Sequence record: PZ049724.1
Reading direction: 5' to 3' (one strand)
Length of the DNA stretch: 1,379 nucleotides
Origin: a phage
The notes under the pieces are model-generated. The model did not search any database and was not told the origin of the DNA. It worked only from the letters and a program-made list of their open reading frames with translations. The translations under genes and the position numbers were made by a program. Shown piece by piece: positions 1 to 1,379 of this stretch (the first letter of the stretch is position 1; each line of letters starts with the position of its first letter).

Positions 1-16
1 CGCGATGAGTTATGGT

Positions 17-31
17 GATTTCTGGTGTATG
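17..31. repeat. Candidate left terminal inverted repeat (IRL)
   Basis: Positions 21-31 (tctggtgtatg) are the exact reverse complement of 1365-1375 (catacaccaga). Extended over 17-31 versus 1365-1379, 12 of 15 positions match. A further gapped match (caggc at 36-40 versus 1355-1359) suggests the repeat may extend inward to about 25 bp. Confidence 0.45.
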
Positions 32-107: not shown

Positions 108-821
108 ATGTCCAAGTCTAACCTGCATGCTCTTTCACAGCCAGAGATGACTAGCAATGACCCGCTGCACGAGCTGATTCGGCAAGGTGCGCGTGACCTG
201 ATTGCCCGGGCAGTTGAGACAGAGCTCGAAGGTCTCTTGAGCCAGTACGCTGACATCAAGACGGCCGATGGCCGGCAGGCGGTGGTACGCAATGGGTATC
301 TTCCCAAACGCACCATCCAGACCGGTGTTGGCGATGTGGAGGTTCAGGTGCCCAAGGTCCGGGATCGCAGTGGTGCCGGCATACGCTTCAATAGCCACCT
401 GCTACCGCCTTATCTGAAACGAGCGAGGAGTATGGATGAGCTGATCCCATGGCTGTACCTACGGGGTATCTCGTCGGGCGACTTCCAGGAGGCCCTCAGC
501 GCTCTGGTCGGCGAACAGGCCAAGGGCCTATCGGCCAACACGGTGTCCCGGCTCAAGGCGCAATGGCTTGATGAGCACAAGGATTGGCAGCGGCGGGATC
601 TGAGCCAGACGCGTTACGTCTATTGGTGGGCAGACGGCGTGTACAGCAATGTCCGCTTGGATGACCGGCTTTGCCTGCTGGTAATTATCGGCGTCACTGA
701 GCATGGCCATAAGGAGCTGGTAGCTGTTGAGGACGGCCACCGGGAGTCCGAAGCCAGTTGGCGAGAGCTGCTGACTGGGCTGAAGGAACGAGGCCTGGAG
801 CCTTCCCCAAACTTGCCGTAG
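108..821 (+). CDS. IS256-family transposase, N-terminal segment (237 aa), containing the first catalytic Asp (WWADGVY) and ending at a premature TAG
   Basis: ATG start with upstream SD. The translation has the family pattern as I recall it: an N-terminal helical region (ELIRQGARDLIARAVETELEGLL), RNGY...VP(K)(V)R motif, YVYWWADG first-Asp motif, and LLVIIGV...ELV. The frame ends at TAG 819-821, before the second Asp and the Glu. Confidence 0.8.
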   Translation: MSKSNLHALSQPEMTSNDPLHELIRQGARDLIARAVETELEGLLSQYADIKTADGRQAVVRNGYLPKRTIQTGVGDVEVQVPKVRDRSGAGIRFNSHLLPPYLKRARSMDELIPWLYLRGISSGDFQEALSALVGEQAKGLSANTVSRLKAQWLDEHKDWQRRDLSQTRYVYWWADGVYSNVRLDDRLCLLVIIGVTEHGHKELVAVEDGHRESEASWRELLTGLKERGLEPSPNLP

Positions 822-1360
822 GCGACGGCGCCCTTGGCTTCTGGAATGCCCTGAGCAAGGTGTTTCCTGATACCCGTCATCAACGGTGCTGGGTTCACAA
901 GACCGCCAATGTGCTGGACAAGCTGCCCAAGTCGGTGCAGCCAAAGGTGAAGTCAGCACTACACGAGATCTACCTGGCGGAGACCCGTGACAGCGCTCAC
1001 AAGGCGTTTAACAGCACCTTGAGCCGGTTCCGGGACAAGTACCCGAAGGCCATGGAGAACCTGGAGAAGGATCGCGACGAACTGCTGGCCTTCTATGATT
1101 TTCCGGCGATTCACTGGATTCACTTGCGGACCACCAACCCGATCGAATCCACCTTCGCCACCGTACGACTGAGGACCAAGCGGAGCCGGTCTTGCGGCTC
1201 CCGCGACACCACGTTATCGATGGTATTCAAACTGCTCCAATCCGCTCAGAAACGCTGGAAGCGAATAAAGGGATTCGATCAACTGAAGCTGGTCGTGGAC
1301 AATGTTCAGTTTCAAGATGGAATACAGGTGGATAATCAATCGGACAGGAACGCTGCCTGA
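758..1360 (+). CDS. IS256-family transposase, C-terminal segment in the -1 frame, containing the second catalytic Asp (LAVGDGALGF) and the catalytic Glu (TTNPIESTF, with R seven residues later)
   Basis: The ORF-track start at 758 is a TTG with no convincing RBS. The transposase-like sequence begins about codon 800-812 (PKLAVGDG...). There is no in-frame ATG or GTG before the second Asp, so this segment is probably expressed only as a fusion with 108..812, or not at all. Stop TGA is at 1358-1360. Confidence 0.75.
   Translation: MARAADWAEGTRPGAFPKLAVGDGALGFWNALSKVFPDTRHQRCWVHKTANVLDKLPKSVQPKVKSALHEIYLAETRDSAHKAFNSTLSRFRDKYPKAMENLEKDRDELLAFYDFPAIHWIHLRTTNPIESTFATVRLRTKRSRSCGSRDTTLSMVFKLLQSAQKRWKRIKGFDQLKLVVDNVQFQDGIQVDNQSDRNAA
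806..812 (+). other. Candidate -1 frameshift site: heptamer C_CCA_AAC (X_XXY_YYZ pattern) at the junction of the two transposase frames
   Basis: In frame 0 the codons are CCA (807-809) and AAC (810-812). A 1-nt backward slip re-pairs them to CCC and AAA. GGAG at 797-800 lies 5 nt upstream and the frame-0 stop TAG lies 7 nt downstream. Equally compatible with a 1-nt indel in the C4 run at 805-808. Confidence 0.35.
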
Positions 1361-1364
1361 TGGT

Positions 1365-1379
1365 CATACACCAGATTTG
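1365..1379. repeat. Candidate right terminal inverted repeat (IRR)
   Basis: Reverse complement of 1365-1379 is caaatctggtgtatg, matching 17-31 (gatttctggtgtatg) at 12 of 15 positions with an 11-bp exact core. The transposase stop codon (1358-1360) lies directly beside it, as is common for IS elements. Confidence 0.45.

Follow-up and report, generated by a model that had tools for sequence, protein, structure and literature searches.

The stretch of DNA analysed here (1,379 nucleotides, hereafter the window) is, as judged from its sequence, a copy of an ISMaq7-like insertion sequence of the IS256 family that measures 1,384 bp and has been described before; in the window's copy the transposase gene is divided between two reading frames. 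The results point to a copy of this known, active element, which flanks grdA in Salmonella, that would be perfect except for one C lost from its only five-C homopolymer (C5 to C4, 805-808), so that the single 417-aa ORF looks split. The loss is most likely due to an undercall of the homopolymer by the sequencing or assembly method, in which case C5 and an intact gene are probably present in the true DNA. The arrangement would not have to be programmed in any way, and both the -1 relation of the frames and the slippery-looking heptamer at the break would follow mechanically from the position of the lost base. The features referred to below are, in window coordinates:

1-6, no strand: flanking (target) DNA, CGCGAT, outside the element; to the left of position 7 the window no longer aligns with three copies that lie at other sites.
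7-31, plus strand: IRL, the left terminal inverted repeat of 25 bp, GAGTTATGGTGATTTCTGGTGTATG, identical to the published IRL (PMC12587605).
45-111, plus strand: predicted leader hairpin, MFE -33.5 kcal/mol, z -3.96; none of 200 shuffled sequences folded as well.
108-821, plus strand: ORF1, 237 aa, made up of the N-terminal 234 residues, three out-of-frame codons and TAG (819-821); it holds the DNA-binding region and D176 (633-635).
805-808, plus strand: C4 run at which the frame breaks; the corresponding run in intact copies is C5 (TCC CCC AAA CTT, S P K L).
806-812, plus strand: C_CCA_AAC, which has the form of an X_XXY_YYZ -1 slippery heptamer and lies in the phase of ORF1, read from the sequence.
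809-1360, plus strand: remaining, C-terminal portion of the transposase, read in the -1 frame; it begins with K235, ends at the stop codon 1358-1360 and contains D240, CxxH, E347 and R354.
1365-1379, plus strand: inner 15 of the 25 bp of IRR, the right terminal repeat as published in PMC12587605.

The ISMaq7-like element has been described as an IS256-family member of 1,384 bp with 25-bp inverted repeats and 9-bp direct repeats, two copies of which bracket grdA-IS1394 in Salmonella enterica (PMC12587605). Examples are CP082667.1 and NZ_CP043223.1, with WP_011805383.1 as the transposase; the element resides on both plasmids and chromosomes of Salmonella enterica. The window's element and the published Salmonella element are one and the same: the IRL and the visible part of the IRR are identical, and the sequence from 7 to 1379 agrees except for one C. 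The complete element is 1,384 bp long and generates target duplications of 9 bp. The window differs in that its run at 805-808 is C4 and not C5, so that the 417-aa ORF is split, in that it is without the last 10 bp, and in that it lies at another insertion site (flank CGCGAT).

The boundaries of the IS were set by the 9-bp target duplications in two of the plasmid copies (L001 and L003). The element ends 10 bp (ACAATAACTC) past the right edge of the window, and the IRR was completed in identical copies. Duplications of 9 bp flank the copies L001, L003, L005, L006, L007 and L018, the right end of the window's own copy being cut off, and the target duplication of 8-9 bp expected of the IS256 family is therefore seen from other copies of the element. 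Its length of 1,384 bp and its 25-bp IRs likewise lie within the 1.2-1.5 kb and the 20-30-bp terminal inverted repeats of this family. A megablast search of PLSDB with the window matched eight records, with identities of 99.7-99.9% and as many as 7 places in a single record; the records with the element were Salmonella IncHI2 and Col plasmids and one Pseudomonas IncP plasmid. The element was not found in E. coli complete genomes, in the phage collection or in IMG/VR, all three of which were searched. The biological weight of the identification is small, as publications already cover the element with its ends and target duplication, and also the part that it plays in moving the aminoglycoside-resistance gene grdA.

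Some further copies showed rearrangements of their own. On plasmid pJS3066 of Pseudomonas sp. JS3066 (NZ_CP143313.1; L004 1567-2681), an IS30-family element has split an otherwise identical C5 copy near IS position 1267, the matched pieces overlapping by 3 bp, and the same pairing of IS256- and IS30-family elements is present in the Salmonella grdA unit (PMC12587605). A marine copy (L014, TARA_R110000868_G_scaffold47963_1) is a natural variant that carries, near IS position 268 in the N-terminal region, an in-frame 3-nt insertion (ATG) together with one substitution and keeps the single ORF. A 96.6%-identical copy with internal deletions was found on a 1.6-kb contig of a Firmicutes MAG, 'uncultured Peptococcaceae' (CALKAR010000127.1; L012 34-1378). 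Every host except this one is a Gammaproteobacterium, and one homologue bears a Methylobacillus name; the L012 copy is suggestive of a binning contaminant or of a decayed copy.

ORF1 and the second ORF, which is -1 relative to ORF1 and open from 758 to 1360, are consecutive halves of one IS256/Mutator-family transposase, with no gap between them and far beyond chance. Against PF00872 (Transposase_mut, Mutator family) ORF1 matched profile positions 17-224 (E 3.9e-34) and the -1 frame 228-378 (E 5e-31), and the joined protein gave a single match covering 17-378 (E 1.4e-69). The joined protein also reached the family-profile level for IS256, scoring 326 bits against the NCBIfam equivalog NF033543 transpos_IS256 (cutoff 150), and a phmmer comparison with the ISCth4 transposase (PDB 6xg8) showed homology over residues 9-384 (E 1.3e-35). 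The two profiles and the ISCth4 alignment thereby uphold the family assignment of the original prediction.

The catalytic residues are found where they had been placed before, with the first Asp in ORF1, which runs from 108 to the TAG at 819-821, and the second Asp and the Glu in the -1 frame. The codons are 633-635 for D176, 824-826 for D240 and 1145-1147 for E347. The previously given spacings of 64 aa (D176-D240) and 107 aa (D240-E347) were reproduced by the alignment, as was the Arg at E+7 (R354), and the -1 frame further contains C261 and H264 (887-889 and 896-898). When aligned with ISCth4 TnpA, an IS256-family transposase of known structure (PDB 6xg8/6xgw/6xgx; PMC7780238), the DDE triad and the CxxH motif correspond residue by residue, D176/D240/E347 falling on D175/D241/E348 and C261/H264 on C262/H265 (numbers from PMC7780238). 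The DDE spacing, the K/R at E+7 and the CxxH in the helical insertion domain are thus all as in the IS256 family. The two proteins are nevertheless distant, ISCth4 being encoded by a single ORF and having 66 aa between the first two Asp residues, as compared to 64 in the window's element.

A single uninterrupted transposase ORF, which was originally put forward as the normal state in this family, is indeed what the reference copies have (417 aa), and the relatives are unbroken as well. In the window the ORF is split at 805-821. The missing single ORF is a defect of the window's copy or of its sequence, and not of the element.

Alignment with three plasmid copies showed what separates the two states. 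Where the intact copies read CTT CCC CCA AAC, the window reads CTT CCC CAA AC, and the one missing C is the only element-internal position at which the window differs from all three; the intact copies L001 and L003, from finished Salmonella plasmids, match it at all 1,373 IS positions except for this base. The intact copies are annotated as one CDS of 1,254 nt encoding 417 aa (WP_011805383.1), with the sequence ...E P S P K L A V G D G... across the site, and the C5 run is the sole homopolymer of at least 5 bases in the 1,384-bp element. The C4 run at 805-808 and the heptamer C_CCA_AAC at 806-812, in the correct phase for a -1 shift, are present as had been noted. The original prediction left the copy as either inactivated or recoded, and it named as evidence against recoding the finding of intact single-ORF copies that differ only by one C at 805-808. 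Exactly such copies were found; the branch of a simple frameshift mutation or a sequencing error is strengthened, and that of programmed recoding with an OrfA-like regulator did not hold up.

The break is also rare. The exact intact protein occurs on 691 contigs and a variant in its 90%-identity cluster on 175 more, while the exact 237-aa truncated ORF1 occurs on 6-7, and the intact form outnumbers the broken form by roughly 100 to 1. In a scan for the C4-or-C5 pattern, C5 was present in the one match (1/1) among GTDB species-representative genomes and in all four (4/4) in metagenome contigs. None of the best places in PLSDB is C4; all carry the one-base gap relative to the window, and a C4 copy would have ranked first. 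Among protein homologues, drawn from Marinobacter, Halomonas, Methylobacillus and metagenomes, the break was absent from all of the 120 best listed (77-99% identity): 115 are 416-418 aa long, and the other 5 (375-406 aa) each cover at least 90% of the query and therefore span the junction. A relative in Marinobacter nauticus VT8 (82% identical in nucleotides, 90% in amino acids) reads GCG CCC AAG CTG at the site and has neither the C run nor the heptamer. Taken together, the rarity among copies and the absence from relatives mean that, in the sequences compared, the break is conserved neither among copies of the element nor among its relatives. It had been asked whether the break is in every copy and conserved across species, and with intact copies in such excess and every relative examined lacking it, the answer was negative.

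The copies that do show C4 are informative about the cause. An identical C4 state was seen at no fewer than 7 different insertion sites, with its own target duplication wherever both flanks are present, and this is easily explained by a systematic error and not by a single mutation. Five of the IS copies lie in the long-read Canu-style 'tig' assemblies ERZ1332090 and ERZ1332097, where the run is C4 or C3 and where GAGAG, a G4 run and TT of the copies have also lost bases. A 1.9-kb flank of ERZ1332097 tig00000380 could be compared with a finished Stutzerimonas plasmid, to which it is 99.4% identical. Almost all differences were homopolymer contractions, every run of at least 5 bases being shrunk to 4 (C5 to C4 twice, G5 to G4, C6 to C4 and A5 to A4), and the same tig splits the housekeeping gene transaldolase into two ORFs. 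The base calling behind the ERZ1332097 tig dataset demonstrably makes the systematic error of turning C5 into C4.

We infer that the window's own source has the same homopolymer error as these tig datasets. The contraction in the window is the same C5 to C4 change as in homopolymer undercalling of uncorrected long-read assemblies, and we consider such an undercall to be the most likely cause of the split ORF, and a reasonably probable one.

The effect of this error extends beyond the IS. In L005, L006, L017 and L018 (ERZ1332097 tig00000380 and tig00000384, ERZ1332090 tig00000099) runs of at least 5 become 4 and dinucleotide repeat units are dropped, and many genes are split in the tigs of the two assemblies, among them those for transaldolase, IstB, IMS/IMS_C, SRAP and DEAD/Helicase_C. 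Gene calls from these tigs seed spurious truncated proteins in protein collections.

It is also possible, although we hold this more tentatively, that the deletion is genuine. Replication slippage on C5 would then have produced a recent C4 allele with an inactivated transposase, and the copy would be a young pseudogene or a non-autonomous element. For true slippage, too, no site is as mutable as this homopolymer, and the missing C as the window's sole difference from the intact allele fits a very recent event; yet the only dataset with a measurable error profile makes exactly the C5 to C4 error. The remaining C4 copies, five short Logan contigs (ERR3213904, ERR3213533, SRR32022549, SRR32022507 and SRR12390988), come from at least three studies and have no other indel as compared to the reference, a single substitution in one of them being the only other change, which speaks for a real allele. 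Against this, C4 was found in no finished record and in no match of the genome-contig or metagenome-contig scans. The same defect at 7 or more independent sites requires either recurrent mutation, by repeated slippage at a hotspot, or efficient trans-mobilisation by intact copies that share the cell, and the latter is made plausible by the multicopy nature of the IS where it is present (up to 7 places on one plasmid).

The surroundings of the Logan copies are neutral in this respect. Their flanks contain no run of at least 5 bases that could show a collapse, and the window contains no second long homopolymer. The flanks of two of the contigs (L007 and L008) matched no finished record in PLSDB, no insertion site common to the Logan contigs and the tig assemblies was found, and the run and assembly accessions of the C4 copies gave no match in a literature search. 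In one SPAdes scaffold (ERZ22279073 NODE_7332, coverage 2.96; L019 around 1461-1530) the C5 run is replaced by CCACC and a run of N begins 5 bases later; this break in a short-read assembly could reflect low coverage or a mixture of C4 and C5 reads.

Programmed recoding of the gene is, in our judgement, very improbable. According to this explanation C4 would be a real allele, and -1 frameshifting on C_CCA_AAC would produce a 417-aa K235N enzyme, with the predicted junction peptide GLEPSPNLAVGDGALGFWNALSK, along with an abundant 237-aa N-terminal product, resembling the OrfA/OrfAB arrangement of IS3 and IS1. The X_XXY_YYZ motif is in the correct phase, a stop follows 3 codons downstream and the product would have the native length, and the window thus has the 0/-1 ORFs with an in-phase slippery motif in their overlap that mark a frameshifting IS. 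It has them trivially, since deletion of one C from C5A3 leaves CCA AAC over CCC AAA and the heptamer is an automatic by-product; being inevitable after the deletion, it carries no evidential weight for recoding.

Recoding in other elements offers a useful comparison. The 0/-1 ORF pair, the X_XXY_YYZ motif in the overlap and a catalytic domain that is complete only in the fusion are shared with IS3, IS1 and ISMich2 (PMC4066793, PMC3942029), and ISMich2 represents a conserved -1 frameshift in another prokaryotic Mutator-like group (PMC3942029), which lends the idea some precedent. In those groups the break is conserved throughout, often together with stimulators, whereas in the window's element it is nearly absent among copies and absent in relatives, and no stimulator was detected. 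Conservation is what supports recoding in ISMich2, IS1 and IS3, and in this key respect the window's element fails, the break not being conserved. The occurrence of C4 copies at many sites could be read in favour of recoding, but the element also exists in hundreds of copies that are intact, not one of the 120 homologues listed (77-99% identity) has a break, and both run and heptamer are missing from the 82%-identical VT8 relative.

The local sequence gives little reason to expect efficient shifting. Some IS1 and IS3 elements use low-efficiency motifs of the A_AAC type. In E. coli A_AAA_AAC and G_GGA_AAC have low efficiency, a motif that lacks a stimulator exceeds the background of about 0.05% by a factor of no more than about 10, and heterogeneous ZZN codons such as AAC, or AAY codons in general, shift less well (PMC4066793). 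Folding of 813-900 and 813-860 showed a downstream RNA no stabler than shuffled sequence (z -0.38 and -0.29, respectively), and no stimulator was found, whether as a stem-loop or pseudoknot on the downstream side or as an SD-like sequence on the upstream one. A GGAG lies 5 nt upstream of the heptamer, equally in the intact copies, and is therefore uninformative as an SD-like stimulator. Intact copies, for which a frameshift is unnecessary, have the same sequence all around the site.

If a C4 allele exists, leaky production of transposase is conceivable, and nothing points to selection for leakiness. That C4 is both genuine and mobile, judged by at least 4 Logan sites with no other indel, and survives through a low-rate -1 slip on C_CCA_AAC giving the K235N full-length protein plus a truncated N-terminal DNA-binding product, is a scenario we regard as extremely improbable. 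Were this scenario true, a regulatory scheme with two ORFs, like that of IS3, would only just have emerged in the IS256 family and would here be observed at its beginning, and a genuine and mobile C4 would make a small, instructive case of how frameshift-regulated transposases might originate.

Transcriptional slippage was rejected, as C4 or A3 is far below the run lengths that support such slippage, the runs known to do so being far longer.

The undercall reading carries a caution for annotation. A one-base homopolymer contraction in a transposase automatically gives a textbook-like 0/-1 ORF pair and a 'slippery heptamer', and signals of this kind should not be read as recoding without a check of conservation.

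Upstream of the gene, the leader folds into a strong hairpin. Pairing of 51-58 with 100-107 forms its lower stem, which ends immediately ahead of the AUG at 108, and the hairpin encloses the AGAGGAA Shine-Dalgarno region (about 92-98). The same fold was obtained for the Marinobacter VT8 relative (z -5.25). The leaders of the window and VT8 are 96% identical, as compared to 82% for the CDS, and the changes in the leader all fall in loops. The hairpin is probably a translational attenuator of the transposase, comparable to those by which read-through transcripts are kept from being expressed.

No sigma-70-type promoter-like site was found in the window when both strands were scanned. The tips of the terminal repeats do contain promoter-like hexamers, as in ISCth4, and the likeness to ISCth4 implies a copy-out/paste-in lifestyle for the window's element. 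In the tip of IRL there is a -10-like TATGGT (11-16), 4 bp from the left end, and the tip of IRR holds a perfect outward-facing -35 TTGACA, 7 bp from the end (L003 1673-1678, in the 10 bp beyond the end of the window). Across a circle junction with a 6-bp spacer, TTGACA and TATGGT would form a promoter with a spacing of 17 bp, a hybrid, circle-junction arrangement that has been described for IS256 and ISCth4 (PMC7780238).
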